NCBI GenBank assembly: GCA_000004985.1
Contig: GG738859.1
From: Naegleria gruberi
Taxonomy: Eukaryota
Length of the DNA: 64,000 nt
Reading direction: 5' to 3' (one strand)
Both the position numbers and the translations under genes were made by a program. Below, piece after piece: positions 26,969 to 49,700 of the stretch (positions within the stretch are counted from its first letter, which is position 1; each line of letters opens with the position of its first letter). The notes under the pieces were generated by a model. It had not been told where the DNA came from and did no database searches. It was given only the letters and a program-made list of their open reading frames with translations.

Positions 26969-27898
26969 ATGAGTAAATCAGTTATTGCTAATTTTAAAAG
27001 ATTTAATCAAACATCAGCAAGTGTAGAATATTATAAAACACTTGATTTAGTATCATCATTTAGTATTCAAATGGTTGAATTATTAAATTCATTTGTTCAT
27101 CAATGTGAAACAAAATTAAATTCATGTTCACATCATATTAAAAGATTGGAAATTACTTTAACTTTATTAGAATCAAAACTTGAATCTGTTAATGGATTAA
27201 AAGATCAAATGACACAATGGAATTCAGATACATCTATTCAATCACAATATTATCATCATAGAAATCAACAACAACAACATTCAAATACTAATACAACTAA
27301 TACTAATAATAATGGAACAATAACATCAGCACCTCCTCCTCCACTGTCAACATTTTCAGCATCTGTTCCACCTCCACCACCACCTTCATCATCATTTGGA
27401 AGTGTACCTCCTCCACCACCATCAATGGGTAGTACTGGTATTCCACCACCACCACCACTATCAATGGGTAGTGTTCCACCTCCACCACCTCAAATGATGA
27501 TGGGAAGTGTTCCTCCACCACCTCCATCTCAAATGAATTCGCCACCTCAATTAATGACATTACCTCCACCTCCTCCACCAACATCTCAAATTGTATCAAC
27601 AATATCCTTACCACCTCCTCCATCAACAACAATACAACCAGCAAGTGAAGCAACTGAATCTGCATATATTCCAACATGTGAACAAGATCCAAGATTAGCT
27701 CACTATTTCAAGTTACTTAACAAACTTCAAGTACCAAGAGCTCAAATTGATATGAAAATGAAAATGCTTGGCTTAGATTCATCTGTACTTGATACACCAA
27801 ATGATCCTTCTCCTTTAGGTCCATACATTCCTGAAGAAGTATCAAAGCAAGAAGAAAAGGAAGAAACTGAAAGTACTGCCAGTAATGATTCATGGTAA
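26969..27898 (+). CDS. WASHC3: WASH complex subunit 3 (CCDC53)-like protein with a long polyproline region
   Basis: The N-terminal coiled-coil (TLDLVSSFSIQMVELLNSFVHQCETKLNSCSHHIKRLEITLTLLESKLESVNGL) aligns with human CCDC53 (TVAFLNQFVVHTVQFLNRFSTVCEEKLADLSLRIQQIETTLNILDAKLSSIPGL). This is followed by about six SVPPPPPP-type repeats and a conserved C-terminal block (LAHYFKLLNKLQVPRAQIDMKMKMLGLD). Confidence 0.65.
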   Translation: MSKSVIANFKRFNQTSASVEYYKTLDLVSSFSIQMVELLNSFVHQCETKLNSCSHHIKRLEITLTLLESKLESVNGLKDQMTQWNSDTSIQSQYYHHRNQQQQHSNTNTTNTNNNGTITSAPPPPLSTFSASVPPPPPPSSSFGSVPPPPPSMGSTGIPPPPPLSMGSVPPPPPQMMMGSVPPPPPSQMNSPPQLMTLPPPPPPTSQIVSTISLPPPPSTTIQPASEATESAYIPTCEQDPRLAHYFKLLNKLQVPRAQIDMKMKMLGLDSSVLDTPNDPSPLGPYIPEEVSKQEEKEETESTASNDSW

Positions 27899-28561
27899 AT
27901 AAAAAAATTAATTCAAAAGGGTCTTTTAACAAAATATATCTCATGACTGAATCATCATCTTCCAATAATACCATTGATGTTCTCAGCTCTGTAAAATAAA
28001 TTGTCATAATACTGGAGAGTCAGTCACCACTCTGTTGTGAGCAACAATAAGAAATCAAAAAAGTCTACATAAATCTTGAAATGATTTGAGGCTATTGTTA
28101 TGTTAACAATTTAAGAAGGAGCCTCTTCATTAAAGAGATAATGAATAATACAATATTTACTCAACTGATTGGAGATTTTGATAAGTGAGAATATAGAGTT
28201 GTGGCATTTTGTTGACAAATTCATTGAAATTCAATGTTAACAACTAACAACTAAATGTTCTCTAATCCAAATCACAAGATATTTTGCATCATAATAGTCA
28301 AATCCTAAATATGAGCTGACCACCTCTATCGACTTTTCAATTTTCTCTTCTTCCTCTCCAAAAAATAGAATATCAGCATGCTTAAATTCTCCACATCAGA
28401 AAAGGTGTTTCCCATAAGAAAGTTTTGATTTCTTGCTTCCAATGCCAAGCAATAAACTTCTTCCACAAAAGTGAGCTGAAGAATTTGTCAGCCTTCTCAT
28501 CAGGATATTCTTGTGATTTTCCGTAAAACAAATAACTCAATGGGAAGTAAAACCCTAAAAT

Positions 28562-28635
28562 TGCCTCCCTTGGGAATCGAACCCAAGACCTCTGTCTTAC
28601 TAGGACAGCGCTACTGCCAACTGAGCTAGGAAGGC
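28562..28635 (-). tRNA. tRNA-Thr (anticodon AGU), 74 nt with no encoded CCA; D-arm slightly irregular
   Basis: The minus strand reads GCCTTCCTAGCTCAGTTGGCAGTAGCGCTGTCCTAGTAAGACAGAGGTCTTGGGTTCGATTCCCAAGGGAGGCA. The acceptor stem GCCTTCC/GGGAGGC is 7 bp with one G-U. The anticodon stem-loop is CTGTC-CTAGTAA-GACAG, giving anticodon AGT. The T-arm is TTGGG-TTCGATT-CCCAA, with A- and B-box-like sequences present. A TTTT run follows 1 nt after the 3' end on the coding strand (plus 28557-28560). Confidence 0.7.
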
Positions 28636-28829
28636 TGACATTATTAAATGTTTAAATAAAATTTTCCAATTAATTTAGCTAGAAGTTTCTTGATATCCAC
28701 AAAACTGGTAACTTGTCTCCCACGATCCCAAAAGTTGTTGTAAATGGTCCAAACTATGAACCCTTTGGTATCATATAGAACAGTAGTGTTCAATGATGAT
28801 TTAGCAGTTAGAATATTTAAAAAATGGTT

Positions 28830-28833
28830 AAAA
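28830..28833 (-). terminator. RNA polymerase III T-run terminator directly after the 5S gene
   Basis: The minus strand reads TTTTAACCATTTTTT immediately 3' of the 5S end. The tRNA-Thr has the same arrangement, with a T-run 1 nt past its 3' end. Confidence 0.5.
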
Positions 28834-28951
28834 GACTACAGCACCACAGGTTCCCAAGTTGTCTCCAACCTCAGTACTGATGTGGCTCGACGATGCTTAA
28901 CTTCTCAAATCGGACGGGATGAGGTGCATTCATCGTGATATGGCCGTAGCC
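28834..28951 (-). rRNA. 5S ribosomal RNA gene (about 118 nt)
   Basis: The minus strand reads GGCTACGGCCATATCACGATGAATGCACCTCATCCCGTCCGATTTGAGAAGTTAAGCATCGTCGAGCCACATCAGTACTGAGGTTGGAGACAACTTGGGAACCTGTGGTGCTGTAGTC. Helix I pairs GGCTACGGC with GCTGTAGTC. The conserved 5S blocks CCGATCTG-like, AAGTTAAGC, GTACT..GGTTGGAGACAAC and GGTGCTGTA are all present. A TTTT run follows immediately on the coding strand. Confidence 0.85.
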
Positions 28952-30123
28952 ATTAATTAACTTAAAATCTTAATTATTAACTTGTGGTCGATTAATTTCA
29001 AAAGTCTTAAATATTTTTTTCAATTTCACACTTGATAATTGGAACAATGCTATTGATGAGTTAAGTATTGGGATTATAAAATTGTGAATTTTAATTTCCT
29101 TTCGCATTAATTCACAATTCACAAGATGAAAAGAACTGTATTTTCCATAAAAGTTTGAATTTTATGTTTCAGATAACAGTTCCATTACGAATATGAAAAT
29201 TAAATTATGTCAAAAAGATATTCTGAAAACAGAGATCAAATATAAGAGGTTGGGATCTTCCTTAATTCCTACTCAATTATGGACTTGTCAATTTTCACAA
29301 CAATCTATTTCAGTTTCTCCTCAAACTATTAGAAATGGTCATAAAGAGAACATATATTTAGATAACAATATATCACTATTTCATTACGAAAATGACACCT
29401 AAAATTTGTATGAGTTTTCTTGATAATCTTGGATTTTGCAAAATATCTCTCGATCATAACTCATATCATATGAATCTAGTTCATTTTGAAAATAGTGAGG
29501 ATTTTAACTTTCCCAATATGTATGCAACTTCTTATCCTTTAACAAATATTTGGTAATTTTCTTTGTGAATGGATTTCAAAGTGAAACATTCAGGATTGGT
29601 TTACTTGTGATAAGGTGATATGGATGCTGGTAGATTTGAACCTATACACTGTCAAGAAGGTGTATCCAATAATTTAAGATAAAGAAAAGAGGTTGTACTG
29701 ATTCATTTTTACTTGATCGTACCAAACATTCAGATTTCCCAATCAAACATGACCCTGTTTCTCTAATACGAATCTCTGATGAGTTTGTACCAAACTAGCC
29801 ATGTCTATTGGCATAATCCTGAACTTTTCCTTTTCTAACTTTATTTTCAGATATCTAAATTACAATAAAGACATGATAATGAGAACAAGAAAATTACCGC
29901 CAAGTTCTTATTCTAAACAAATTAATAATTGTATGTCGTCATCTTGTGAAAATCTTGAAATTTATTGGGAACTGAAACAACTAACAACTGGATGAAACAG
30001 AAAATAATGTTCAATCAGTCGCAACATTTAAATAATTATGATTTTCAATATTAAAAATGTCTTCGTGGATGATGAATAATAATTTAATTGAAATTTTAAT
30101 TTATAGTTTTTATTAGAATGGAT

Positions 30124-30870
30124 TTACAACATCTTCTTGACCAATTGGTTGATATATTCTTCTCTGTTACCGAATGAACCACCCAAAATGAAGTGCTTCT
30201 TGATAGTTTCATAACCACCCTTTGGATGTTGCAACTTGAAAGGCCACAAAAGGTTTGAGGCTTCCTTGAAGTGTGGACCAACAGTGTGAATTTCGTGAAC
30301 CAAATCTTCAACACAGACAATATCCTTTTCACCCAACTTTTGTTCAATTTGAACGTTGCTAGTGATTGGCTTTCTATCACCGTTAACATTCAAAGAACCT
30401 CTCTTATAAATGAGTTGCTTGATGGTGGACAAAGATGGATAACCCCAAGCGACGTATGGTTCAACGAGCTTCAACAAGTTCAAAGTAGCCTTGTTAATTC
30501 TGACGAAGACACCGTTGTTGATTTGTCTGAGTCTCAAGAGTTGGAGAGCTTTCTTGGCCTTGGCAGCAACAGACTTGATACCTCTAATTCTGATGACGAA
30601 AGCCAATTTAGCTTGTGGTTCAACGAAGAGGGAACCAACTTTAGCAGCTTGATCGTGAGCAGCCTTGACGTTAGCTTCCTTTTGCTTGTATTCCTTAGCA
30701 TACTTTTCGGCTCTCTTCAAAGCCTTCTTTCTAAGAACAATGAGCTTCTTCTTTCTGTCGAAAGCGAGCTTGGCTCTTTCTTCAGTATGAGTTTGGAGTC
30801 TCTTTCTTCTCTTCAAGACAGTTTCTGGGGCTGGCTTTTGGACTCTAACGTTTTCAATTGTGACTACCAT
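30124..30870 (-). CDS. RPL7: 60S ribosomal protein L7 (uL30), single exon, 248 aa
   Basis: MVVTIENVRVQKPAPETVLKRRKRL...VEPQAKLAFVIRIRGI...LRLRQINNGVFVRINKATLNLLKLVEPYVAWGYPSL...LIYKRG...IVCVEDLVHEIHTVGPHFKEASNLLWPFKL aligns along its full length with eukaryotic RPL7. The codon usage is GC-richer and looks biased, as expected for a highly expressed gene. The plus-strand ORF 30271..30906 is its antisense shadow. Confidence 0.9.
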   Translation of the reverse strand: MVVTIENVRVQKPAPETVLKRRKRLQTHTEERAKLAFDRKKKLIVLRKKALKRAEKYAKEYKQKEANVKAAHDQAAKVGSLFVEPQAKLAFVIRIRGIKSVAAKAKKALQLLRLRQINNGVFVRINKATLNLLKLVEPYVAWGYPSLSTIKQLIYKRGSLNVNGDRKPITSNVQIEQKLGEKDIVCVEDLVHEIHTVGPHFKEASNLLWPFKLQHPKGGYETIKKHFILGGSFGNREEYINQLVKKML

Positions 30871-32091: not shown

Positions 32092-35000
32092 ATGTCATCA
32101 AAAAGATCTAATTTATTACTCTCTAAAGATTATCAAAGTAAAAAATCATCAAAACAAACAACAAATCAAAATAATGATGATGATGAAAATCTAACACAAG
32201 AAGATAAAATTAATAGAAGAGTACAAAGTGTATTAAAAACACTTCCATCTAAAAAGGATGAAAATTTAATTAAATTTAAATCATTCTATGAATGTATTAA
32301 AGATGTTAAAATACTTTCGGAAGTACAATTTGATACTTATAGAAAAGAAGAATCAAAGAATGAACATGATTCAACTACTTTTTTATATGATAAAATGTTA
32401 GAATGGGATGAATTGAATTTAACTGTATGTTATTTATATTCTCAATATTTAATTTATAATTTACAATAATAATAGAAACATTATATTCAATTTAGATCAA
32501 ATATTCAATCATTTGTTAGAACATTACCTGAAATGATACATCACAAAGAAACTATTTGTGATATTTTTGTTAATCATTTAAGAATTAAGGATTCTCTTGC
32601 TTATCAACCTATTTTAGAGTAAGTAGTAGTTTTTATTTTTCATTACAATAATATTAAATATTCATTACAATAATATTAAATATTTAAAAAAACAGTCTAG
32701 TAACAATATTTGCTAAAGATTTACGACAAGAATTTTATCCATTATTTCCACGTTTATTTTATCCAATAGTATATAATATAAGTTCTGATAATATAGAATT
32801 GAATGGATTAATATTTAAAAGTTTAGCATTTTTATTTAAATATTTACAAAAATATATTATTAAAGATATATCATTATGGTTTGAAAAGTATAGTAAAATA
32901 CTTTCACATAAGAAATGGTATATTAGAAAATTTGCAGCTGAAAGTTTTTCATTTTTAATTAACAAACTTTCAGATGAAGAATTAAAAATTTATGTTGAAA
33001 AAGTTTTTAATTTATTAATTGAAAAACCATCACAAATAATGTATGATGGTGTTAGTCAAATGTTTTTTGAATCAATGAAAGGTATTTTAGGTAATTTACA
33101 TTCTAAAATGTCAAGATTATTACCTTTATTATTTAGACAATTAAATTGGAATTTAAATTATAATGGTACTATTAAACAACAATTAGCTGATATTGGTAAC
33201 AAATTTACTTTAATTGAAAAATGTTTAATTTTATTAAGAGATTATTCTAAAAATAAGTTAATTGCTAAACAAATTTGGGATTTATTTGTTATTGAAATTA
33301 AATTTTTAATTAATTCTATTAATTTAAATAATAATAATAATAATAATCAAATTAAATATTAATAATAATTTAAATAATATTAAAAATAATTTAAATAATA
33401 TTAAAAATTTAAATAATTTAAATAATAATGAATATTTAAATATTCAAATAGGATATTTTATACAATTAATTAGAACATTTAATACTATTGAAAAATATAA
33501 TGAAGAATCAATTTATTTAATTTTAAATTTATTAAATAGTAAAAATCTATTAATAGAATTTAATGCTCAATCATCACAAGCATTATTTTCATTTATTTCT
33601 GATATAATTGAAACATTACAAAGATCAGATATAATTGAAAATGTTAATAATTTATTATTTAATTGTTTTTATATTAAAGATAAACAAACAGTTTATACTT
33701 TTTATAGAAAATTAATGAAAACAATTGGAAATGAACAAGAATCAAATACAATTGTTAAAGAATTTTTAAGATTTGTTAATGATGATATTAATTATAATTT
33801 TGATTCAACTGTTGCTTTTTTATTAAATTTTATTCATACTAATACTACTAGTAATAGTAATTTAGATACAAATTTGGAATATACTTTATTATCTGATAAA
33901 AATTCTAAATTTATTCAAATTATTTATAACAAATTTATTGAAATTATTTCAAATATTAAATCACAACAAGATTTAATTCAATTTTCAAAACAATCAAATT
34001 CTTTATTATTATTATGGTCTATTTTAAATATTTTATCTATTTATGGTAAAAAATCAGATCAATATTTAAAAAATTTATATGAAAATGTTTATAAATTTTT
34101 ATTACAATTTATTAAATTAATTGATCAAAGTCAATATGAAAAGAAGGAATTACAATTATTACAAATTATTATTGCACAATCTTTAACTTTATTAAATCAA
34201 GTTTTACATTTCTATAATAAGAATTTTAATAATTTAATTGAAATTGTTATGGAAATTTCATGTAAATTTGGTTCATCATTACAAGTTTTAATTTCATGTA
34301 ATCAATTAATTGATAATGTAGAGTAGGTTTTTATTTTAATTTTTAATTTTAATTTTATTTAATTTTAATTTAATTTTAATTTTTAATTTTAAATAGTTCC
34401 AATTTATTAACAAATGATAAATTTAAAATAATTGCAGAATCATTAAAATCCAATCTTCAAAGTAAATCTGATAATCTAAGATTAGAAACATTAAAATATT
34501 TAACTAAATTTGAACAAGATGAAATTCAAAAAGGAATTGTTCTTAATAAGGTAGAAACTACTAAATGTGTAGTTTTAGAATTTTTAAGAGATTCAGAAGA
34601 ATGTGGATTTGATTGGGATCAATCACGTAATCGTACAGTTTTATTAGAAAAGGCTAATGAATTTTTAAAACGTTACACCATTCCACAAATTTACAAAACT
34701 TTAATTTCTAATTATGTATTTGGTTCATATTTTACAAAATATCAAATTGTATGGGAACCAACAAGTAATTTAGCATCAACAATGATGAGAATTAATTTTA
34801 AAGAATTTTGGAATTTATTAATACCAATTATTTCAAATATTTATCAAAAATGTAAGTTTTTTTTAATTTTATTTAATATTTTAATTTAATTTTAATTAAT
34901 AATATAATTTAATATTTAATATTTTTAATAATATAATAATATAATAACAAATCAGATGGAGAATATAAAAAAACACATTATAAATCAATGATTTATAAAT

Positions 35001-38000
35001 CTAAAAAAAGAGATGAAGAAACTAGTTTAAATTTTGAATCATTTTCTAAACAAGTTAAAAAAATAGAAAAGATTTCAGATATAGAAACTATATTTTTAAA
35101 AATTATTAAAGATGTTTCTAAACAACATACAGATTATTCAACATATTTAGATATGATATTTAATATATTTATAAATGGAGCAAGAGATTCTAAAAAAGAA
35201 GATGATATATTATTAGTATTTAATTCCTTTTATGAAAATGAATTTAAAGAATATGATATTGAAGAAGTTGTTAATTTTATTACTAGAAATCCAATGACTG
35301 GTCGTTTAGAAAAATTATTAAATTTAATTTCAGAATTTAATGAAGATTTCTTTAAAAAGGAAAAATCTAAATTTATCAAATCAGTTATTTTTAGATTATT
35401 TTCAACTTCAACAATATCAATTCAATTATTATCTTTAAAATGTTTACAAAAGTTTAATTTACCATATTTAACAAGTAAAACTGTTAAAAATTTACAAAAA
35501 GTAATTTCATCTAATAGAAGTGTTGAACATTTATCTAAATTAGATTTTATTAATATTCCAAAACAATATAAACAAGAATATATTCATTTACATTTAAAGG
35601 TTATTGAACCTTATTTATTAATGTTTGATATGACTAAAAAGAGAGGTAAAAATTCTAAAGATGCAATGATTAAAAAATGGAAAATTAGAGTTCATCAAGT
35701 TATTGAATTTTTAGGTCAATTACCAAAAGAAACACTTGAATATTTTATTAACATGTTATTTAATAGATTTAAATCTATTGATAATAATAATGGTAATGAT
35801 AGTAATATTGATAGTAATATTGAGAGTACAAATACTAATAATAGTGATGGTAAATTTGCTGAAGATTTAATCAAGGCAAATACATTCCAGTTACGTTGGT
35901 TATTAGATATTATTGAAGAAATTTTAACATGTTTAACTGGAAATTATCATTACTTTTATAATCAAGTATTGGATTTATTAATTACTATTATTGAATTGAG
36001 AGTTGATGCTCATGAAATGGAAGTTGATCAAGAAGAAGAAGAACAAAAATTACTTGAACAACAATTACTTGAACAAGAAGAAGAAGAAGAAGAAGATGAT
36101 GAACAAGATGAATCATCCACTATTAAAGATTCTGATAGTAAATCATCTGAAAAATCAGACAAGATGACTGATGAAGTTGATGATGAAGATGATGACCAAG
36201 ATGATGATGATGATGAATCTACTGCTACTTCTATTCAAACTACTTCTACTACTAAATCAACTATTGCTAAATCTACTACTTCTACCACAACTACAACAAC
36301 TGATAATAATACTAGCTACTACTGTTAATAAGAAACCAATTATTAGACAATATTATAAACCAGCATCATCTAAACAAAAAGTATCATTAACATTAACATT
36401 TAAAAGAGCAGTTGAATTACTTGAATTATTCTTTGATAGAAAACAAGAATTTGATTATAGTATTGAATTTACATCACACGTAATTTCATTATTTACAAAA
36501 TTCTTTGAAAATATTAATAAGAAATCATCAAGAATTGAAGAATTACCTTCTTACTTTTCAATTTTATTTTCATGGTTTGATAAACCTAAACTTTATTATT
36601 TAATTAAATATTATGAAAAGGAATTAATATTTAAATTTATTGAATTAATTGATCAATATAATGTTTCTAATGTTGTATTTGATCAAGTTTTATCTATTTT
36701 TGATAAAATATTATCAAATAAGGATGAAATTTTTATGAATTTAAATCCAAACTTTTCAAAAATTACAACAGATATTGAAAATGGTTTAACTATTGGTATG
36801 AAAATATTTGAACCTTCAATTATTAATCAAATTTTAATTGCATTTTATAATTTATTTATTGAATCTAATTATTCATCTAAATCTATTAATAATAATAATA
36901 ATAATAATAATTATAAATCTAAAAATAATAGTTATAATAATAATAATAATAATAATAATAATTTAAACAAATTAAATGATGAATTAAATGAACAATCAAA
37001 TGAAAAACAAGAATTTTCTAAAAAATGTTTTAAATTAATTGATAAAATGAAAGGTTATTTTGATGAAACATCACCTGCTGATATTATTTTAACCTTTTAT
37101 GGAACATCAATTAGAGATGGATCTTCTTTAAATGAAGATGAAGCACGTGTTTTATTACATTTATTTAAAAAATATTTACCATATTCAAGTGAATCTATTA
37201 AAACATTATATATTATACATTTTTCTAAAATGTTTATTTATAATAATGAAACTATATTTAGAAATCAAATTTGTGATATAATTGAAAAATTAGCAATTGG
37301 ATTTAATAATGAAAAATTAAAATTTACATCTAAAATTATTAATGGATTAAATGCACAAATTGAATCACATTTAACAAATTTAGATACATCATCTAGAATT
37401 GAAATATTTAAAGAATTAAATTCAAATTTAAATATAATTTCAAATTTAAATGAAATTGAATTATTTCCAATTATAGGTAATTTAATATTCTTTTTAGGAC
37501 ATAAAGAATGGATATTACGTGATTCATCTTCACAATCATTATTAAATATTATTGAAATTATTAAATTTAATAATGAAATGAAAGAAATTAAAAGATTATT
37601 AATTTTACATGTTAAAAGATTATCATTTTCAGATAAATTATTAGAAAAGAGTGAATCAATGTTAGTTTATTCTAAAATGATTGATCAATTTATTGAATTG
37701 GAAAATTTAAAACCATTTTCAAAATCATTAGAATTAATTTCAAATGTTAATTATCAAAAGAAATTAGAAGGTTTACAAATTATTAATTCTATTTTAATTC
37801 CAATTGAAAAATGTAAAATTCAACAAGATTATATTTATCAAATTGTACCTCCACTCATTTATGAATTAATGGTAATTAATGATAAATCTATTCAAGATTT
37901 AGTTAAACAATTATGTATTTATTTAGTAACTGTTTTAGATTGGAATTATTCACATCCAATTTTAAATCAATTAGTTACAATGATGGGTACATATGGTTTA

Positions 38001-41000
38001 AAGGTTTTATCAAAGAGAAAGAAATTAGCATTGGATATTATATGTCAAATTGTTGATGTATTTCCATTTGATAAAATTAATGATCATGGTTTTAATAGTA
38101 GTTATAGTTATAATAATAGAAATGATAATAATAGATATAATAATAGAAGACATGAATCAGAAGAACCATTATCAAATAGTACAGTTACTATTGAAAAGGA
38201 TACTACAAATGATGATGATGATAATGATGCAGACGACAATGAAATGATTGATGAAAATGAAATTCCAAAAGGTAGAAGAATGAAGAGATATTTCATGAAA
38301 GATTTCATTCCAAAAGTAACAAAATTCCTTTGGGATAAGAAATTAGAAATTTATGTCATGCGTATGCAAGTTTGTTTCTTAATTATTAAAGTATTAAGAA
38401 GATGTGATAAAACACAATTAGATGTACATTTATCTAAAATGGTATTAGATGTATTAGGTAAATTAAAGAGTAAAGATGAAGAACAACAACAAGTTGCTGG
38501 TAAAGCATTAATTGACATGTTTAAAGAATTGGGAAGTTCATATTGAAAGTAATGTCATCAGATCACAAAACTACTCACATTATTACACAAGCTGTACATT
38601 CAGTCATGTTAATTTTATTGAATGAAAATACATATCCACCTTTAAAAACATTTAAAAAGAGAAAAGTTTCACGTTTTGATATTGAAAAGGCACAAGATTA
38701 TGAAAATCAATCATCAATAGGTGAAAATTCAGTTTCATTAACTGCATCTGATAGTTCTTCATCAAAACATTTCAAATCAAAACATGAAAATACTTTATTT
38801 AATTGTTTTGAATTATTAGGTTCAATTATTGATATTAAGAAGAGTTTATCATATATTATTAATGATATTAATTTCAAAATTAGAATTGTACATAATGCTG
38901 AAATTTTAAAGAGATTTGAATTTGTATTTAAATTTTTATTGAAAGGTTTAATGAGAAATAGACAAGTTATTCAATCTAATCAATCTATTACTAATACTAT
39001 TACTAATAATACTACTACTAAACAATCTAATCAATCTAATAATAATAGTGAAATGTTATTAAATGTAATTAAAAATGAATTATATCATTATAGATTATAT
39101 AAAAAGAATTTTACAACAATAACAGATGGAGAACAAGATAGATTTCATTCTGTTAAAACTACTAAAGATAGAAAGGAAGAAAATTTCCTTGTACAAAAAG
39201 AACCAGGTAGACTTGGTGCAATTGATCAAGCTAATGATATGAAAATGAAATTATTAGCAGGATTAATTGATAATTCACATATTATTGTACAATTTTATTT
39301 AAAAATGTTTGAAAAATGTATTAAAAGATTTAAAATTCAAGTAGATAAACATTTAGAAATGATGAATGAAATAATACCATTATTATTAAAATATGTTAGT
39401 GGTAATCATTTAAATGTAGCATTGGTTTCATTTAGAATTTTAATTGAAATTTGTAAACGTACACCTAAAGTATTTAAAATATTAGAAGATTCTAAACAAT
39501 TATTATTAAATTCTACATTTGATATATTAACAAATTCAGGTATTGATTCTACAAATTTAGAAACATGGGAAACTATATATACAGGTATTAAATATTTTTT
39601 ACAATCTGATATTTCACATAAATATCCATTATCATTAGGACAATTAGATATTTTATTAGATATGTTAAAAATTGAAATTTCATCAACTAGAAAAACCTAT
39701 TCAATTCAAACATTTCAAATTTTATCAAATTTAATTGATAATAAGGTACAAATACCACAAATTTATGATTTAATGGATAAATCAATTACAATTATGTTAA
39801 CTACACTTGAAATGGAAATACAAAAAACTATAGTTGAAATGTTGGTTAATTTTTATTTAAATTATCCATTTACAAATGAAGTATTACAAGACAAGTTAAA
39901 TTATTTATTTAAAAATGTTTTAAATGAAAATATGTCAAATGAATCTAAATTATCAATTTTAAATTTAATTCAAACTATAATTAAAAAATTTCCAAATAAT
40001 TTCCTAAATGATAAAACTGAATTAATTTATTATCCTCTAATTTTAGAATTAGAAAAACAATGTAAAAAACGTGTTATTGCAGGTGATAACAAATCAATTT
40101 CATCAATTGTTTCAAAATTAAGAGAAACTTTACAATTTTTTATTAAAATATTAAATGATGAAAATTTAATTAAAATTATTAAAATTACAAATGATTGGAT
40201 TTTAAATGAAAAGAAATTAAAACCAATTGGAGTTAATTCTATTTTAATTTTATCAAATGTATCAAATGGTAGTAAATTAAAATCATCATCAGAATTTTAT
40301 GAAAATATGATACCTCAATTAATTTCTATAATTGAAAATTCAGATACAAATTTAGAAAAATATCCAAGTTTAGTATTAGAAACATTGGAATGTTTTTATT
40401 CATTATTTTCACAATCTATTATTTCATTCCAACATGTTGATGAAATTTGGAATTCCTTATTAAAAATAATTTGTGATGAAAATGATTTGAGAAGTGAAAT
40501 TAGATTAGAATCTTTGAAAATCTTTGAATTATTTGTTTCTAAAAAGAAGAAGAATGAATCTAAAATTTTAAATCATTTACAATATTTAGAACAAATGTCA
40601 ATTTCAATTATAGAATTATTTAAATCACAATATATTAATGATACAAATGTAATTGTAATTGTTAAAGTTTTAATTTATTTATTTAAATTATTAGATTCTA
40701 ATAATGGAAGTGAAATTTTACATAAATTATTTAAATCTTTACGTAAAATTTCAAATCAAACATTTGATTTTGACACCAATGAAAATATTACATTTAGAAG
40801 AATGAATATTTTAAAGTTATTTATAGGTTTAGCTTCTAAATATGGTAATCAATTACAACCTTATTTAATTTACATGACACCATTAATTTATAGATGTTGT
40901 GAATTTTCAAATAGAGATAAATCAATTGTAACAATTGAATTGGAGAAATTTGCTAAAGAATCTAAACAATTAATTCAACAATCATTAACAGATTCAAATT

Positions 41001-41242
41001 TATTTGTTCAAGCTTATGAAGAAGGTAGAAAATTAGTTGAAAGTAAAAGTGAAAAGAAATCAAAATCTAAAGAACAATCAATCATATCAAAACCATCACA
41101 ATATGCTAAAAAGAGATTGGAATCAAATTCTAAAAAGAATGATACTAAAAAGAGAAAGTTAAAAGAATCTTTTAATCAACCAACTGTACAAATATCATCA
41201 TCTGGTAATGTACAACAAGTTAAAAAGAAGAAGAAGAAGTAA
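32092..41242 (+). CDS. UTP20: UTP20 (DRIM) small-subunit processome component, about 2900 aa, at least 5 exons; three apparent frameshifts
   Basis: Exon 1 (32092..32424) ends ...LEWDELNLT and exon 2 (32476..32618) begins KHYIQFRSNIQSFV..., matching human LLKWRELNLTEHFGKFYKEVIDKCQSFNQL. Exon 3 starts at 32696 and reads ...HKKWYIRKFAAESFSFLINKLSDEEL against human HKKLHIRNFAAESFTFLMRKVSDKNAL. The introns are 51, 77, 74 (34323..34396) and 104 (34852..34955) nt. The C-terminus is a Lys-rich tail, ...KKRKLKESF...VKKKKKK, like human UTP20. Frame breaks with no possible intron occur at about 33328-33362 (an A/T run), 36300-36330 and 38540-38550. Confidence 0.85.
33361..33432 (+). repeat. AT-only tandem direct repeat (unit about 24 nt, aataatttaaataatattaaaaat, 2.5 copies) inside the UTP20 coding region, encoding NNLNNIKN repeats
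   Basis: A direct sequence repeat is visible at 33361-33384 and 33385-33408 with a partial third copy. It lies immediately after one of the UTP20 frame breaks. Confidence 0.6.
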
Positions 41243-41412
41243 TTTAATTTAATTGATTTGGAAATTGAATTGATTTGAATTATATAATAAAATAAATATT
41301 ATTTAAAATGTTATTGGTGAATATTGTGAATTCATATATGACATGTATTGATAGAGAGAGATGATTCTCATTGTCATTTTGAAACATTTGGTAGTTATCA
41401 TGATTAATTAAA

Positions 41413-43662
41413 ATGTTAAATTTGCTTGTACAAACTTCCAATACCAATACTACTAGTCAACAACAACATGAACAACAACATGAACATTCTCATCATAATG
41501 GAACATGTTCTGCACCTATTAATATTGTGAATAATCAATCATCATCATCATCATCCTATTTAACAACAAATCATTCACCATCACATTCACTAGTTGTGAA
41601 TTTAAATGAAAATCATACCATTAATACATTAAATCATCATCATCATCACTCTAATAATATCAATAATAATATAAATAGCAATCAACATCATTCTACCAGT
41701 ACCAGCACTAGTAATATTAATAGTAATAGTTTAAATAATCAAAATATTGAAAATAAATTAAAAAAGAAAAAGAAAGAAGAAACATGTCAAAAACAATCCA
41801 CCACTATTAATAGTAATAATAATAGTATTATTAATAGAAATCATCGTATTTCAAATAATTCATCATTATTTCCTAATAATACTACTAATACTCATAATAA
41901 TACTACTACTCATAATAATACGAATACTCATAATAATAATACGAATACTAAAAAATCCAATCATTCTAATATAGCTTGGAATGGAAAAGTAAATCATACA
42001 AATATATCAAATAGTAATATGACTATTAATAATACATTATCAAATAATAATACAAATAACAATAATAGTAATGGTAATAGAGAGAGTAATAATAGTAATA
42101 TATCATCAACCATTCATCATCACAATCATCATACTCATCACCATAATCATCACAATCACCACAATAGTAACCATAATTATCAGAGTTTACCACCTCAATC
42201 AAGTACAAATGCTTTTTCATCTTCCTATCAACAACAACAACATAGTTTTTATTCCGAAAAAAGTTTTAACAATTCATCTTCTTCATCATCAACATCAAAT
42301 AGTACATTAAATAATTCAAATAATAATAATAATATGGGCAGTACTACAAATAATCATCATCATCACCATCAACATCATCATCGAAATAATACTAATAATA
42401 ATAATAGTATGAATAAGAATGGTAAACAAAGAATGAATCATCAATCCAATAATAATAATAGTAATAATAATAATAACAATGAAAATAATTCATCATTTAA
42501 AAGAATGAAAAATAATAATTTATATGAATTATTATTAATATGTAAAAGTAGAACAATTATTAATGATCAATTTAATATTTCTTTACCTGATACAAATATA
42601 TATAGCTTTTTTAAACATGTAACACCTAAATATAGTAGTTATGAAAATCAAGAATTATTAAATAATTATAAATTAAAAGATTTATGGAATTTTTATGATG
42701 AACCATATGGTGTTGGTATTCCAATTAAATTACCAAAACATTCAAATAGAGAGAGTGTTTATTTTGTACCACATTTAAGTGCAATTAAATTAGTTGCTAC
42801 TAATATTAATACTACTACTACTACTAGTAGCAGTACATTAATTAATAATATTAATAATATTACTGAATCAACAACTGAATCAATAACATCTAATAGTAGT
42901 TCTAATAGTAGTAGTAATAATAATGTGACTTGTAATACTTGTAATAATCAACAACAACAACAATTGAATGATCAAGCAGCTGATGAAAATTCAGATAAAA
43001 TTTTATTTGAATTTTATGAAACAGTTACACCTGATTTGAGATATCCATTCATTGATAAAATGGAAGAATTATCTAAGGATTGTCCATTCTTAATGGAAGG
43101 TACAATTAGTGAATTAAATTTAGATAAGAGTTGGTTTTCAATTGCATGGTATCCAATTTTATGTCATAATCATACAATGAATTGGTTAAAAGGACAAATG
43201 ATTACCTATCACAAATTATCACCATCCTATCATGCTATTGATACAAGCTTTTTATCTTGTGTTAAACCTAAAAATGAATTTGATGAATTAATTAATGAAA
43301 AGAAATTATCAGCAAATTTGAATATTAATAATAATAATAGCAGTAATAGTAGTAGTACATCAACATCACCAGCTTTATCAAATATTCAATATTATTCACC
43401 TATTATTGGATTCTTACCTTACAAATTAAGAAATGAAACTTGGTTTTATGATTTTAAGAGAGGAAATAATCAATTAACAGCACCACTTTATTTATTACAA
43501 TCTTGTCATAGATTACAACGATTCTCCAATCCAAATACTATGCATCCTGATTACCATCATTGTTTGAAAAATAGTCCAGAATTAGGTCTCATTCCACATT
43601 TCCATCAATCCTCAAACAATAACCATCACAACAATAATGGTAATAACTCAATAAAAGAATAG
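41413..43662 (+). CDS. DUF789-domain protein with a long Asn/His/Ser/Thr-rich low-complexity N-terminal half
   Basis: The C-terminal half carries the DUF789 blocks KDLWNFYDEPYGVGIPIKL...ESVYFVPHLSAIKL and ILFEFYETVTPDLRYPFIDKMEELS...SWFSIAWYPILCHNHTMNWLKGQMITYHKL. It is a single 2250-nt ORF. Confidence 0.6.
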   Translation: MLNLLVQTSNTNTTSQQQHEQQHEHSHHNGTCSAPINIVNNQSSSSSSYLTTNHSPSHSLVVNLNENHTINTLNHHHHHSNNINNNINSNQHHSTSTSTSNINSNSLNNQNIENKLKKKKKEETCQKQSTTINSNNNSIINRNHRISNNSSLFPNNTTNTHNNTTTHNNTNTHNNNTNTKKSNHSNIAWNGKVNHTNISNSNMTINNTLSNNNTNNNNSNGNRESNNSNISSTIHHHNHHTHHHNHHNHHNSNHNYQSLPPQSSTNAFSSSYQQQQHSFYSEKSFNNSSSSSSTSNSTLNNSNNNNNMGSTTNNHHHHHQHHHRNNTNNNNSMNKNGKQRMNHQSNNNNSNNNNNNENNSSFKRMKNNNLYELLLICKSRTIINDQFNISLPDTNIYSFFKHVTPKYSSYENQELLNNYKLKDLWNFYDEPYGVGIPIKLPKHSNRESVYFVPHLSAIKLVATNINTTTTTSSSTLINNINNITESTTESITSNSSSNSSSNNNVTCNTCNNQQQQQLNDQAADENSDKILFEFYETVTPDLRYPFIDKMEELSKDCPFLMEGTISELNLDKSWFSIAWYPILCHNHTMNWLKGQMITYHKLSPSYHAIDTSFLSCVKPKNEFDELINEKKLSANLNINNNNSSNSSSTSTSPALSNIQYYSPIIGFLPYKLRNETWFYDFKRGNNQLTAPLYLLQSCHRLQRFSNPNTMHPDYHHCLKNSPELGLIPHFHQSSNNNHHNNNGNNSIKE

Positions 43663-43719: not shown

Positions 43720-46700
43720 TTATTCAGATTCTAATTGATTTGAAAGTTCTAATGCTTCTGATTGAGTTTGAATTAAATCTGATGGAACATCAACACATAA
43801 AATCTTAATTAAATATGGAATAGATTCAAAATTATATCCAACTTCTTGATAACTCTTAAAGTGTTGTAAAATCTCTACCAATTTAATACATTTACCAAAG
43901 TTAATAAATATAGTACCATTTGATTGTCTAAAGGTAGGTTCAATATCACATTCTTTCAATTCATCTAAATAGGAATTTACCAATGGAATGATTGGTAATT
44001 TAATTGAATTTAATCGATTAATTAAATTCTCTCTTGCTTGTGGATTTTTATCTGAAAAGTAAGTTTCATGATATAAACGATAAATCTTTTTAGATTCCTT
44101 TGACCAACTCTTATTTAATCTCAAAATGGCATGATTACTCAATCCACAATATATTGAATATAATCCAAATAAATTATTCATGGCAAATAATTCTTCACAT
44201 ATTTGATTAAATTTGTTAATAATTTCAATTCTCTTATTTAAATCTCTTTCACGTAAAATTAAAGTCACAACCCACAATTCACAATCTCTCTTTCTCTCTA
44301 ATAGTGAAGAGAGATGTGGTAAATAATCTTTTTGTTTGGTGGATGCACAAATTTCCTTATTATCAATTTGTTTAAAGAATTCAAAATCTATTAAAGTTAA
44401 TTGTCTTGCAATTTCAGTTGAATTCCATGCAAGTAAATCAAATGAAGGAACAAATGAAGTTAGTAAATTCAATTTCAATTTGGAAAATCCATTTGGAATG
44501 ATTGGATTTGGTTTCTTTTTAGAATCTTCATTGGATTGTTCTTTAATTCCCAATAAACAATTAATGAGTGATGATTTAACTTGTTCTAACAAGTAAAAAC
44601 ATTCAAATGCAACTTGTTTAATAACAAGTGTCAAATCATTATCTAAAAATTGAATTAAATTACAAATGAATGGTTGTGTCATATCTGTGAAATGTTTTTC
44701 AATCCACAACTTGATTGAAAGTGTAATATTTAACACCATTTCACTCTTATGTTCAATTTCAGGATCTTGAGCAAATTTAAATAAAATCTGACGAATCATG
44801 AGCAATAATTGATGTGGTGTTGTAAAGAATAAATAACTTGAAAAGAATATCTCTGCATAGGTTAATTTAAAATCCAAATTATTGTTGTTAGCAACATTTG
44901 CACCACCACTACCATTTGAAATATTTGATTGTAAATTACTATTACTTGATTGAGTATTGTTATTAATTGGAGATGATACTTGATTATTAGATGATGATAG
45001 CAGTAAACTATTTGTATAAATATTTGGATTGATAAATAATTTTTCAACAAGATTTTCCAATTTTGAAAAATTCATCTTTTCCAACTCCTCAACTGATAAA
45101 TGTGGAGTATCTCTATTAACATGTAAAGTACCACCCAATTTTAATAGATATTCCTTATGTGATTGTTGTTTTTGTATTAAATCTTCAATTGAATCAACTT
45201 GTTCATGTTGATAAATTTCAATCAAATCGTACAAGACATCACGAACACTTGAAAAAGTTTCAGTCAAAGTTGGGAAATAACAATAGGATAATACACTTGC
45301 TAATATTGATTTCCATTTAGGATTTCTATCTGAAAGTAATTGTGTTAAATGTGTTTTATCAAATGTTAAATGTGACATTCCAATTTTAGCTGTTAATTGT
45401 GTTGGAATGTTAAATTGTTTTGTTGTTGTTGTTGATAGTTTAATATTACTTTCATTAGAATTATTAACATCACTATTATTACCACCATTATTATTATTAG
45501 TATTATTACTATTGTTATTATTATTACTATTAATATTAATATCATTTAATTTAATATGTTCATTAATAAATATAAAAGGTTTAAAAGTTTCTAAAAATGG
45601 TTCTAAATAAGATTGAAATAAAACTCTCTTATGTTCTGAATCCAAATAAGGAGATAATAAAACAACAGATAAAAGGAAATGTAAAGACTTGTCAAAAATT
45701 TCATAAAAAACTAAAGTTTGTGAATCATTTTCATAAATTGAAATTGTCAATTCATCAATTAATTGTTTCATTTCCATTGAACATGTTTCATCACTGAAAC
45801 CTCCTTGACCTTGACCTCCTAATAAATGATTAATTAGTAAATCTTTAAATTTAGATAAAAGTTGATTTGTTTTTTCACTAAATATTTCACTTTTAGGTTT
45901 TAAATATAAATTTACAATAATCTTGTTAAATAATTCCATATAAACTTCATGAAAACAAATTTGTACTTGATTTTGATTATGAATATTCATTAACATGACA
46001 GTTACTTGTAAAATGTCAACTAATGAAAGAATTTTTTCAGATTCAAGTGAAGAGAAATATTCAACAATCTTTTCATCACTTGAATTCTTTAAAATGTGAT
46101 AAAAACATGCAAATAAATCTCCCAATTCATCTTTAAATGTAATACAATCAGAAATTGAATCTTTTTGTTCAATTACTTTTTTAACAAAATCAAAATATAA
46201 ATTTCCAATAAAATTTCGATCTTTTTGTGATTGAATTCTAGAATCAAAATCTAATTTTGTTAAATGATTCTTTAAAATTCTCAATGATAAACCTTTCAAT
46301 TCATCAGTTTTTTGTGTTAAACCATAAATAATACAATCAATTAATTTGGAAATTATAAATTGATTCTCAGAATTTTGAATAATAAAGAAAATATCATCAT
46401 GTTCAATAAATAATTCAAGAAATTGTAAAATATAGAAAATTGCAACATCTCTTGTCTTGTCATTTGATAACTTGTCTTGGAAATAACTAAAATATTCAAT
46501 CATTATTTCTCTAATATATTTAAAATCAAGAATTGGAACTAAATCTCTCAAAAATAATGAAAAATCCAAATTAAAATTGGTAGCAGCTGCATAAATAGCT
46601 GCATCTTTAAATCTCTTCTCATAACACTCCAATAGGAGAGGTGCAATGGTGTGAATTAATTGTTTCAATCGACTCATGAAAATGTTTGGATCAAATTGTT

Positions 46701-49700
46701 GAGAGGAAACCTTTTTAAATTCCTCATCTCTCACAATGTGAATATTCTTTGTAATCAAATCAAAGAAGAACCAACCAAATTTGATTACATCAACTCCAGT
46801 AAAGGAAATTTCAGAGACTTTTCTAGGATTTGCCTCAGCAATAATCTTTTGAGTATTGAAATCGTCAATGACAATTTGTTTTTGTTTGCTACTGCTGCCA
46901 CCACCACTGCTGCTGCCAGTTGAAGAAGTGTTGGATACTTTTCTCCTCTCACGTGTGATAAAATCCTTAAATTCCTTCACTTGACCCTCTGCTTGTTTTC
47001 CATTGGGTCTAGTTTCCATCGAGGTGAATAAAAAGGTAGAAATTTGTTTGTGTGAATCAATATTCTTTGCCAAACCATTTTGTGGTTTAAAATTGAGATC
47101 AGAAACCTTTGGTGAAAAGACTCCCAACTCTATGATTGGTTTCTTTCTATCTTTTTGTCTTGATTCTTGCCAATTTTGAATGAAATTTAACATTTCATCC
47201 ATTAACATTTTGTATAATGGTTCTTCCATATCTGGATATTGTCTTGAAAAGTAAGAAATAAAAGTTGAAATGTAATAATTATTTCTACCAAATGAAGAAG
47301 AAACAGTTTCAATTCCACTTAAAAAGAATAACAAACATGACATGGCACGTGAAATAATTTCAGGTACAATAACCTTAGTTCTAGTTCCATATTGATTAAA
47401 ATTCTTAATTATAACCAATGTTGATAATAAAGTTAAAAGACCATTAATTACTTTTGGAGTGTGATTCAATAATTCTGCAAAATTAGCATCTCTTAAATTA
47501 TCTAACTTTGACATGACATCTAATAATATTTCCTCTCTATTAACATCTTCATTCTTTTTAGTAGATTCAAATGTATTGTAAAATCTATCACATGCATCAA
47601 GGAATGAAGCAGCAAATGGATCTTGAGTATAAAAAGAAGTTAACGCTTTTGTTTTGATATTTAAATAAGATGAATGTGACATTGGAATATCTGTTTGTAA
47701 ACTTAAATAATTATCAACTAATTTTGGTGATTTAAATATTGTTAAAGTATGATAACCATCTTTTACAATACAATGATTAGTAACATCTCTTAAATATGCA
47801 AAACCAATTAATTGAGTATTTGTAATACCATCAGATGAAATATCCATATCACTATTTTGTGGAGCTTTTCCATCTAAACCTTTTGAAATATCCAAATCAA
47901 AAAATTCAAATAAAACATGTGACTTGTCAACAATATTGGCAGATGATGGAATTTCCAATCTAATTTCGTCATAAAATTGAGGTGAAATTTTCTTAAATGT
48001 GATTGAAGAATAAAAATAGTTAAATCTATTAGAATCATTAAATGAATCTGCCATTCTAGATTCTCTTGTTGAAGTGATCATATCATTCTTCTTATATGAA
48101 ACTTTAATATAAATATTACCAGTTTTAGAAAGTGAAGATAATTCACATGTATCTAAATAAATATATAAAGTATTTCTTAAATTAAAATCAAATTGATAAT
48201 AATCTTTAGAGTTATGAAGTGATTCAACAACTGGAAATAATTTGTAAAATGTATCGAGAACAGAGAATGATCCCTTCGATTTGTCCAATCTTTTCATAAC
48301 AGTTTCAATGACATGATCATCCTGATCTGTTTTAAACATGGAAAAATCATTCTTGAATCGCATACTGGTATGAGATTGTTGAGAGGAAGCTTTGGATTTT
48401 CGAGTGGAGAAGGCATGTAAATAGGATGCTAATTTATCTCTCGTAGCTGTATTAGTTTGAAATAGGAAACGAATTGGGAGATTATTCTTATCATCATCCA
48501 TATTAAATGTTGTTGAAAAATCACTGCCACCACTACCTTGAATAGGTAAATTAGTTGAACCATTACTTGATAACCATTTTAAGAATGTTAATACATCAAA
48601 TGAACTTGAAGAATGTGATGGTATTCTATAGGCCTTGTTAATTTTAACTTGACCTTCTAATATTTCAATGGAAGAATTATCATTTTCATCTCGATTTTCA
48701 TAGAAAATCTTTTGACCCATTACAATGAATGGTTGTCTCAACATACTCGCTCTCCAATAATCATTCATTTGTGTGAGATATTTCTTCATTAACTTTTCAT
48801 TATTGGATTTATAGGCTTTCCATGCATCTTCTATTAAACCTCCACAAAATACCTTTTCAATGGTGAATGAAATGTAAACTTCTGTATGTTCTGGTTTTTC
48901 AAATACAAATAAAGCAGATGCCTTTTCAAAATTTTGTCTCTTGTTAATATTCTTAATATGTCTCTGTGTGGAATTTGCCAATTTGTTCATTGAAAATCCA
49001 TCACTACTTGATAGAGAATGTTTAGGTTCAATAAAGAAACAAAAATCTTCTGTCAATTTAACTTCAGATTTGATATCATAGAGTGAAACTTTACAAAATA
49101 AAGGTTCAGGTAAACCAAATTTTGAAAGTACAAAATCTTCATATTCAAATATTAAATACATCATCTTATCAATATTATTATAGAGTGGTTGAACTTTTCT
49201 AGTTCTGTGACATCTTTCAATTTCCTGTCCACCATTCCAAATAAAATCATTATTATAATAGGAAATTACTCTATATGGATTTTCTAATTCATATTGTGTA
49301 ATGACATTTTCTTTAAATTTAAATCCTTCAATTCTTTTTAAATCTTTAGGTCTAATTCCTTTAGCTTTAAGTTTTGTAAAAACTGATTCATTCTTCTTCT
49401 TCTTTCCGTAGAGTTGTTCATGAAGTTGTGAAACTGATTCACCTGAAATGATATCCATTTTACTCTTCTCAATATCGTGATGATGATGATTTGAGAAATT
49501 ACCAGCACTCATACTAACAGTTTGTTGTCCTGTAGTACCAATAGTATTATTATTATTATTTGAATAACTTGTTGATTCATCGAGTGAATTGGTTGAGCTT
49601 TCAAATTCCTTCTTTGGTTTTCTTCTAATAAAATCAAAGAATGAAGCTCTATTAACTTGTTTTTGCTTATTCAATTCAGAAATATGACCAATACTTCTAA

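Follow-up and report, generated by a model that had tools for sequence, protein, structure and literature searches.

The stretch of DNA analysed here (the window) spans 64,000 nucleotides of contig GG738859.1 from the Naegleria gruberi assembly GCA_000004985.1. Between the convergent genes CCDC53 and RPL7 it carries a 5S rRNA gene and a threonine tRNA gene on the same strand, together with a sequence that homology identifies as the decayed copy of a protein-coding gene. The features of this region, in coordinates of the window, are as follows.

26969-27898, plus strand: CCDC53 (WASH complex subunit), left-hand neighbour; Pfam PF10152, E 5e-28
27899-30126, no strand: interval between the stop codons of the convergent CCDC53 and RPL7 genes, 2,228 bp, from comparative synteny
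27899-28561, no strand: flank 1, 663 bp from the CCDC53 stop codon to the tRNA gene; GC 30.9%, coding-like
28541-28561, minus strand: termination signal for Pol III behind the tRNA gene, with a pair of T4 runs in the 3' flank ATTTTAGGGTTTT
28562-28635, minus strand: tRNA-Thr(AGU), 74 nt, no intron, no encoded CCA, type-2 Pol III promoter boxes; from ARAGORN and RF00005
28636-28832, no strand: spacer between the 5S and tRNA genes, 197 bp, 28.9% GC, with the AT-rich upstream region of the tRNA gene inside it
28816-28832, minus strand: termination signal for Pol III behind the 5S gene, made up of a T4 run across the gene's 3' end and a T6 run after it; flank TTTAACCATTTTTT
28833-28951, minus strand: 5S rRNA gene, 119 nt; from the RF00001 match, three-arm fold and motifs of a type-1 Pol III internal promoter
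28952-29095, no strand: spacer between the 5S gene and the pseudogene; 20.8% GC
29096-30036, plus strand: decayed, 5'-truncated pseudogene, about 940 bp, 29.1% GC; from homology to NAEGRDRAFT_77880 (507 aa)
30037-30126, no strand: spacer between the pseudogene and RPL7; 16.7% GC
30127-30870, minus strand: RPL7 (uL30), right-hand neighbour; Pfam PF08079 and PF00327, and homologues

The 5S rRNA gene reaches 105.4 bits with the Rfam family RF00001, for which the gathering score is 38 (E 4.4e-22). The match covers model positions 1-120, the full length of the model, with no non-canonical pairs in the Rfam alignment, and the predicted fold is the canonical three-arm (three-helix-junction) structure composed of helix I and two arms, the same in the MFE and centroid predictions, with an MFE of -41.5 kcal/mol and a z of -2.61. 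This score bears out the complete 5S gene that an earlier, sequence-only reading had placed on the complement, with a 3' end that had been set 1 nt short; a failure of the covariance model, which that reading had named among the results that would tell against its claim, did not occur, the score being far above threshold. Within the gene, nt 50-57 match box A exactly (AGTTAAGC), and nt 80-97 resemble box C, with 2 mismatches relative to the consensus used in PMC3369914; the pattern with which the intermediate element was searched is too loose to be informative. The gene ends in ...GTAGTCT, followed directly by TTTAACCATTTTTT, and a T-run of this kind also lies 3' of 11/11 other 5S copies that were retrieved.

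The tRNA gene was identified by two routes, RF00005 scoring it at 53.9 bits versus 29 (Rfam) and ARAGORN independently calling Thr with the anticodon AGT, in agreement with the tRNA-Thr(AGU) first read at complement 28562-28635. Its A box (TAGCTCAGTTG) has 1 mismatch and its B box (GGTTCGATTCC) is exact and is the sole B-box match in the window, and an AT-rich sequence (TATTTAAA) is found about 15-22 nt upstream of the gene. Because the 3' flank reads ATTTTAGGGTTTT, CCA is not encoded. The 5S and tRNA-Thr genes share one orientation and are separated by 197 bp, close to the 200 bp on one strand described earlier, and the T-run terminator proposed after each RNA gene is present in both 3' flanks. 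The 197-bp spacer itself yielded no Rfam match at E<=1 and no Pfam match. Across the 64-kb window Rfam and ARAGORN found just one 5S gene and one tRNA gene.

Both neighbouring proteins tie the window to Naegleria. RPL7, which the sequence-only reading had correctly named as the adjacent gene and which we confirm at 30127-30870 on the minus strand, encodes a product that is 100% identical over 248 aa to Naegleria gruberi P0013, 90% identical to its N. fowleri counterpart and 71% identical to that of Willaertia magna. The best matches of CCDC53 are Naegleria species, in a protein search whose candidate list was dominated by a proline-rich region. Gene order agrees as well, with RING/SYVN1, Mito_carr (mitochondrial carrier), CCDC53 and RPL7 following one another both in the window and in N. 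fowleri VFQX01000001.1. Judged by these protein similarities and this synteny, the organism is Naegleria gruberi, a heterolobosean amoeboflagellate, and a dictyostelid origin, the frame in which the locus had been read at first, is ruled out. Since the organism is Naegleria and not a dictyostelid, comparison with the Dictyostelium rDNA palindrome does not apply, and inferences derived from dictyostelids, whether on the rDNA palindrome or on TRE and DGLT elements, have no place in the reading of this window. The accompanying intuition that a chromosomal 5S gene is informative about species identity was right.

The organisation of rDNA in Naegleria is well described. The circular extrachromosomal rDNA plasmid (CERE), about 14 kb in size and present in thousands of copies, carries 18S, 5.8S and 28S genes only, and 5S is absent from it (PMC5805870; PMC12482156). 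A BLAST survey of the N. gruberi genome published in 2012 listed 279 potential 5S genes in its Table S1, spread over >100 scaffolds, some on their own and others loosely grouped at intervals of a few kb; "potential" is its authors' word, and some of the listed loci are partial (PMC3369914). The same study described an internal control region, a TATA-like upstream sequence and T-run terminators for the N. gruberi 5S genes, and reported that TFIIIA, TFIIIB and TFIIIC are present in the organism (PMC3369914). With a plasmid that lacks 5S and 279 scattered loci already published, a chromosomal 5S gene is therefore expected in N. gruberi, and the dispersed chromosomal arrangement is known since 2012. 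A test suggested earlier, identity of this copy to a 5S gene of an rDNA contig, is not applicable here. The CERE can be regarded as the other half of a split rDNA, with the large rRNAs on the plasmid and 5S in the chromosomes, and the statement in the literature that there are "no rRNA genes in the nuclear DNA" of Naegleria holds for 18S/5.8S/28S only.

The 5S gene in the window belongs to the same organism and is the same kind of gene as the 279 dispersed loci (PMC3369914), with which it shares a length of about 117-120 nt, a terminator made of T-runs and AT-rich sequence upstream, along with motifs that suggest the internal control region described for them, and it is almost certainly one of the Table S1 entries of that study. 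The published list is without per-locus context; what is added here is a tRNA-Thr gene 197 bp downstream, an interval that is absent in N. fowleri, and an adjacent pseudogene.

The interval is where the window departs from its relatives. The stop codons of CCDC53 and RPL7 are separated by 2,228 bp in the window versus 53 bp in three N. fowleri-type assemblies; on an environmental Naegleria-like contig RPL7 is 58 bp away from a different gene, and the distance in Willaertia is 470 bp. No 5S or tRNA gene was found at the related loci of N. fowleri, the Naegleria-like contig or Willaertia. As the gap is short and without Pol III genes in these relatives, the 2.2-kb interval is specific to the gruberi lineage, and we infer that it was born by insertion or duplication in that lineage and not by deletion in N. 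fowleri. The genome of N. fowleri is the more compact one, and a deletion in its lineage could account for part of the difference in gap size.

The sequence-only reading had described a 2-kb stretch (28.0-30.1 kb) with noticeably more GC than the flanking intergenic DNA and with no protein-coding genes. The GC content of the island, 30.7%, is indeed above the 8-25% of neighbouring intergenic DNA, but the difference is only modest when set against the 27.3% of the whole window, and the value is 28.6% without both RNA genes. Likewise, the stretch is free of intact protein-coding genes, but 29096-30036 is a pseudogene. The coding-like GC without an open reading frame is explained by the fact that about 40% of the island consists of this dead gene copy. 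At 30.9%, the GC of flank 1 is coding-like too, so flank 1 may be relic coding DNA. Flank 1 yielded no Pfam, Rfam or P0133-family matches (P0133 is the protein related to the pseudogene, described below), and the lengths of its ORFs do not exceed those in shuffles; for the right-hand flank (28952-30126) the same type of shuffle test was marginal, with p about 0.02-0.05.

Other searches of the island returned little. The concatenated island ORFs gave no match at E<=10 in a word-indexed protein search, but that search also missed the pseudogene's homologue at E 2e-29, and its negative result for flank 1 therefore carries little weight. Translated in six frames, 27899-30126 gave no Pfam domain at E<=1, and a low-threshold Rfam scan of the island returned noise only beyond the 5S and tRNA genes. 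Self-BLAST revealed no second copy of island sequence within the window, and a repeat search and TRF found no significant repeats in the island, the TRF output being limited to two 7-bp micro-repeats. Separately, a 14-nt exact direct repeat occurs at 28239 and 29976, which we judged to be due to chance.

The pseudogene came to light through the longest ORF of the island, which encodes 83 aa (29151-29399, plus strand) and in an exhaustive HMMER search matches the 507-aa protein P0133 at E 2e-29, with 70% identity over 82 aa. P0133 in turn shares 98% identity with XP_002682613.1, the N. gruberi hypothetical protein NAEGRDRAFT_77880, which is encoded on another scaffold. By tblastn, residues 145-431 of P0133 align to 29157-29813 in four collinear pieces that fall in frames 3, 1, 2 and 3. 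The copy has in-frame stops and lacks a start codon and the first ~144 codons. What is left of it begins at a distance of 145 bp from the 5S gene's 5' end and runs on the other strand.

Two contigs from one ENA sample, representing an N. gruberi-like strain, provide a comparison for this decay. One of them (L022) carries an intact gene, relative to which the window copy has multiple deletions, and the other (L021) carries a decayed copy with lesions in common with the window. The pseudogene and L021 are 93.5% identical at the nucleotide level over 840 aligned bases, and both are about 71% identical to the intact L022. The L021 copy retains its 5' part and adjoins a DUF4116-repeat gene; no 5S or tRNA gene was found near either the L021 or the L022 copy. 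The family is small, as the exhaustive HMMER search recovered just two 50%-identity clusters among 1.84 billion representatives, and the intact 507-aa protein has no Pfam family and no sequence relative in the PDB. An AlphaFold2 model of NAEGRDRAFT_77880, built on a 3-sequence alignment, reached a pLDDT of 31 and is unusable. These alignments identify 29096-30036 as a dead gene copy, truncated at its 5' end, from a small orphan family specific to Naegleria.

Taken as a whole, the locus is best read, with a probability of roughly 0.85, as two independent, ordinary Pol III genes in the nuclear chromosome of N. gruberi. The 5S gene would be one of roughly 280 scattered chromosomal copies, which are needed because the rDNA plasmid encodes 18S/5.8S/28S only. 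Its transcription would begin with recognition of the internal control region by TFIIIA, proceed through TFIIIC to TFIIIB and end in the T4/T6 runs. For the tRNA-Thr gene, transcription apart from the 5S gene is expected, directed by its own A and B boxes and ended by the T4 runs behind it. Expression of the two genes, their use of these promoters and a linkage without function are what we infer.

A first alternative is that the 5S gene in the window is an inactive gene-sized duplicate, either retroposed or gene-converted. Public metagenome contigs scanned with a 27-nt stretch specific to Naegleria-type 5S gave 13 loci. One of these copies (L012) differs from the window gene at 1/119 nt and has flanks unrelated to those of the window, and the other environmental copies are about 76-81% identical to the window gene. 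Among the environmental copies likeness covers the gene plus about 5-17 bp and then ends. Copies that are alike over the transcribed unit only are what would be expected if they derived from transcripts, and the use of "potential" for the 279 loci, some of them partial (PMC3369914), leaves room for inactive members; the window copy also has a unique A24U, with U at nt 24 in loop B where every other retrieved copy has A. This change is, however, a single one in an unpaired loop, in a gene that is full length, scores highly, keeps all helices and has an intact box A and terminator. The match of 118/119 nt to L012 despite unrelated flanks points to purifying selection or homogenisation, and target-site duplications are absent, the flank matches around nine 5S copies being no longer than in shuffles. 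Even a retro-copy would be kept active by its internal promoter. Inactivity of the window gene is thus unlikely.

Since the sequence-only reading had suggested that the flanks be searched for degraded tRNA-targeting elements, the island was also considered as the relic of a Pol III gene-targeting mobile element, with the NAEGRDRAFT_77880-like sequence as the ORF of that element. Targeting of this kind is known for TRE5, TRE3 and DGLT-A in dictyostelids and for Ty1 and Ty3 in yeast. The pseudogene family lends the idea some substance, as its copies, at least one of them intact and two decayed, are spread over different loci, and the lesions common to both decayed copies indicate that an already dead sequence got copied. 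The window copy is moreover 5'-truncated and begins 145 bp upstream of the 5S gene, and TRE5-A inserts upstream of tRNA and 5S genes (PMC5391098). Yet that distance does not fit the 35-50 bp of TRE5-A (PMC5391098), the L021 and L022 copies are without a nearby 5S or tRNA gene, and with two clusters the family is very small. In the island, the six-frame Pfam scan gave no match to a reverse transcriptase, endonuclease, integrase or transposase; the intact 507-aa protein has no retroelement or transposase domain either, nor a relative in the PDB. Terminal repeats, long internal repeats and target-site duplications are absent from the island, and the relic does not end in a poly(A) tail. A TRE or DGLT remnant was rejected on account of the missing domains, repeats and target-site duplications and the mismatch in distance, and we regard an element of any such kind as very unlikely. 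The suggestion to look at the flanks was worthwhile all the same, as 28960-30100 contains a degraded copy of a cellular orphan gene, though not of a TRE/DGLT-like element.

In both N. gruberi and Dictyostelium discoideum the large rRNA genes are extrachromosomal and the 5S and tRNA genes are transcribed by Pol III, but in D. discoideum the 5S gene is located on the rDNA palindrome and is a target of TRE5-A (PMC5391098), whereas the 5S gene in the window is chromosomal and has no TRE-like remnant beside it. D. discoideum is an amoebozoan and N. gruberi a heterolobosean.

It is more improbable still that the 5S and tRNA-Thr genes form a functional Pol III module, whether co-regulated, co-transcribed or acting as a chromatin boundary between RPL7 and CCDC53. 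The pair does have one orientation and a spacing of 197 bp, and its members are the sole two Pol III genes in 64 kb; random placement of one tRNA and one 5S gene would bring them within 200 bp of each other in 64 kb in roughly 1% of cases, so the proximity may reflect a non-random clustering of Pol III genes. There are also precedents. In Yarrowia lipolytica, 5S genes are scattered outside the rDNA repeats and some are linked to tRNA genes in dicistronic tRNA-5S units (PMC2566860), and in Entamoeba 5S and tRNA genes stand side by side, the units of the tRNA arrays containing 5S genes (PMC2652664). The resemblance does not extend to the arrangement itself. In Yarrowia an upstream tRNA gene drives co-transcription of the 5S gene (PMC2566860), whereas in the window the order is 5S and then tRNA, the 5S gene is followed by T4 and T6 terminators, and each gene has a separate predicted internal promoter; this order, together with the 197-bp spacer, the terminators and the separate promoters, rules out a dicistronic unit of the Yarrowia type. 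In Entamoeba the units recur many times in tandem and have STR-rich spacers (PMC2652664), and an array of that type is ruled out by a single pair in 64 kb without tandem repetition.

Related loci also speak against a conserved pairing. Each of the 13/13 environmental Naegleria-type loci has a single 5S gene, and a tRNA gene was found at 0/13 of them; in these relatives the 5S gene sits within short gaps of about 200-400 bp between ORFs. In N. fowleri the convergent pair CCDC53 and RPL7, with its 53-bp gap, does without any Pol III gene. On the present comparison of loci, the closeness of the 5S and tRNA-Thr genes is most likely incidental.

That the island is an assembly artefact, a 5S/tRNA fragment misjoined between RPL7 and CCDC53, is scarcely credible and was rejected: although the interval is absent in N. 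fowleri and 5S repeats can mislead assemblers, the repeat is only about 120-140 bp, too short to give rise to a 2.2-kb chimera, the flanking sequence occurs just once in the window, the pseudogene part is present in the independent assembly of a related strain, and the rDNA plasmid has no 5S gene available for misjoining.

The reading of two ordinary, independent Pol III genes leaves room for a broader conjecture, which we consider doubtful, that heterolobosean 5S genes multiply as bare units of about 120-140 bp and that N. gruberi Pol III sites act as sinks for duplicated DNA. Gene-sized spread of 5S could take place by retroposition of the Pol III transcript or by gene-sized ectopic conversion. 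Such spread would fit both the lineage-specific island and the fact that, in two lineages, copies cease to be identical where the gene ends; the lack of target-site duplications and the single N. gruberi locus examined count against regarding it as demonstrated. If the conjecture were true, the 2.2-kb island would be a Pol III-associated insertion hotspot in a tightly packed, syntenic region, and the DNA collected there would be the dead NAEGRDRAFT_77880-like copy and flank 1.

The locus is ordinary for N. gruberi, and the main value of its analysis is corrective. Its additions are modest: a correction of the species, a lineage-specific 2.2-kb interval and an unannotated pseudogene. For annotators, it is relevant that in the gruberi lineage the gap between RPL7 and CCDC53 seems to have widened, from 53 bp to 2.2 kb, and that part of this gap is an unannotated pseudogene of an orphan family. 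For the biology of Naegleria, the 5S gene described here is one example of the published arrangement, in which a circular plasmid encodes the large rRNAs and the chromosomes carry about 280 scattered 5S genes.

Among the dispersed 5S copies of the environmental Naegleria-type organism (L008-L019, on VFQM/VFQO metagenome contigs), mutual identity is 92-100% but reaches no more than about 5-17 bp past the gene. Many of these copies are directly preceded by the pyrimidine-rich motif TTTCTTC and directly followed by TTTTACT, and target-site duplications, which were looked for around them, were not found. Gene-sized copying, or homogenisation, would fit this pattern.

The Pol III genes of the window are themselves bracketed by a direct repeat:

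28239-28257 and 29976-29994, 19-nt direct repeat, copies 1,737 bp apart

The copies share an exact core of 14 nt (AACAACTAACAACT) and enclose both RNA genes, tRNA and 5S, along with most of the decayed NAEGRDRAFT_77880-like pseudogene. A duplication scar as the source of this repeat is disfavored, and the match is probably due to chance, because the second copy (29976-29994) lies within the pseudogene and is also found in L021, a contig from an N. gruberi-like strain that carries a second decayed copy of the same gene. On L021, this second decayed copy adjoins the following gene:

L021 3-890, minus strand, gene for a protein with 7 DUF4116 repeats (E 4e-124; ENA ERZ929261 contig k127_9816)

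The 64-kb window has no comparable gene, and the decayed copy on L021 therefore sits in a different context from the window pseudogene.

The 663 bp between CCDC53 and the tRNA gene (27899-28561) have a coding-like GC content of 30.9% and contain protein-like ORF pieces on the minus strand, such as those at 28385-28540 and 28240-28395, which lie in adjacent frames. This flank may be a second relic gene. No homologue was detected in a word-indexed protein search with concatenated ORFs, but this search also missed a true match in the island: its long concatenated query of island ORFs returned 0 matches at E<=10, and an exhaustive HMMER search with one ORF of the same query recovered a homologue at E 2e-29. 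Negatives obtained with queries that are concatenated or of low complexity are not to be relied on.

Beyond RPL7, the window contains large ORFs:

32092-43662, plus strand, run of large, very GC-poor ORFs (15-24% GC)
43720-51726, minus strand, single ORF of 2,668 aa

Synteny with N. fowleri and Willaertia suggests that the run is probably the UTP20 gene, broken into several ORFs by introns or frameshifts.

Several papers on the Naegleria rDNA plasmid claim that the nuclear DNA lacks rRNA genes or rDNA (PMC5805870, PMC10586121, PMC10112140). This is true only for 18S/5.8S/28S, since both the window and the 2012 list of putative dispersed N. gruberi 5S genes (PMC3369914) show chromosomal 5S genes. 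The window copy carries U at nucleotide 24 of the 5S RNA (position 28928), an unpaired position in loop B, where L012 and every other Naegleria-type 5S copy retrieved have A. U24 could serve as a locus-specific marker for expression of the window 5S copy.
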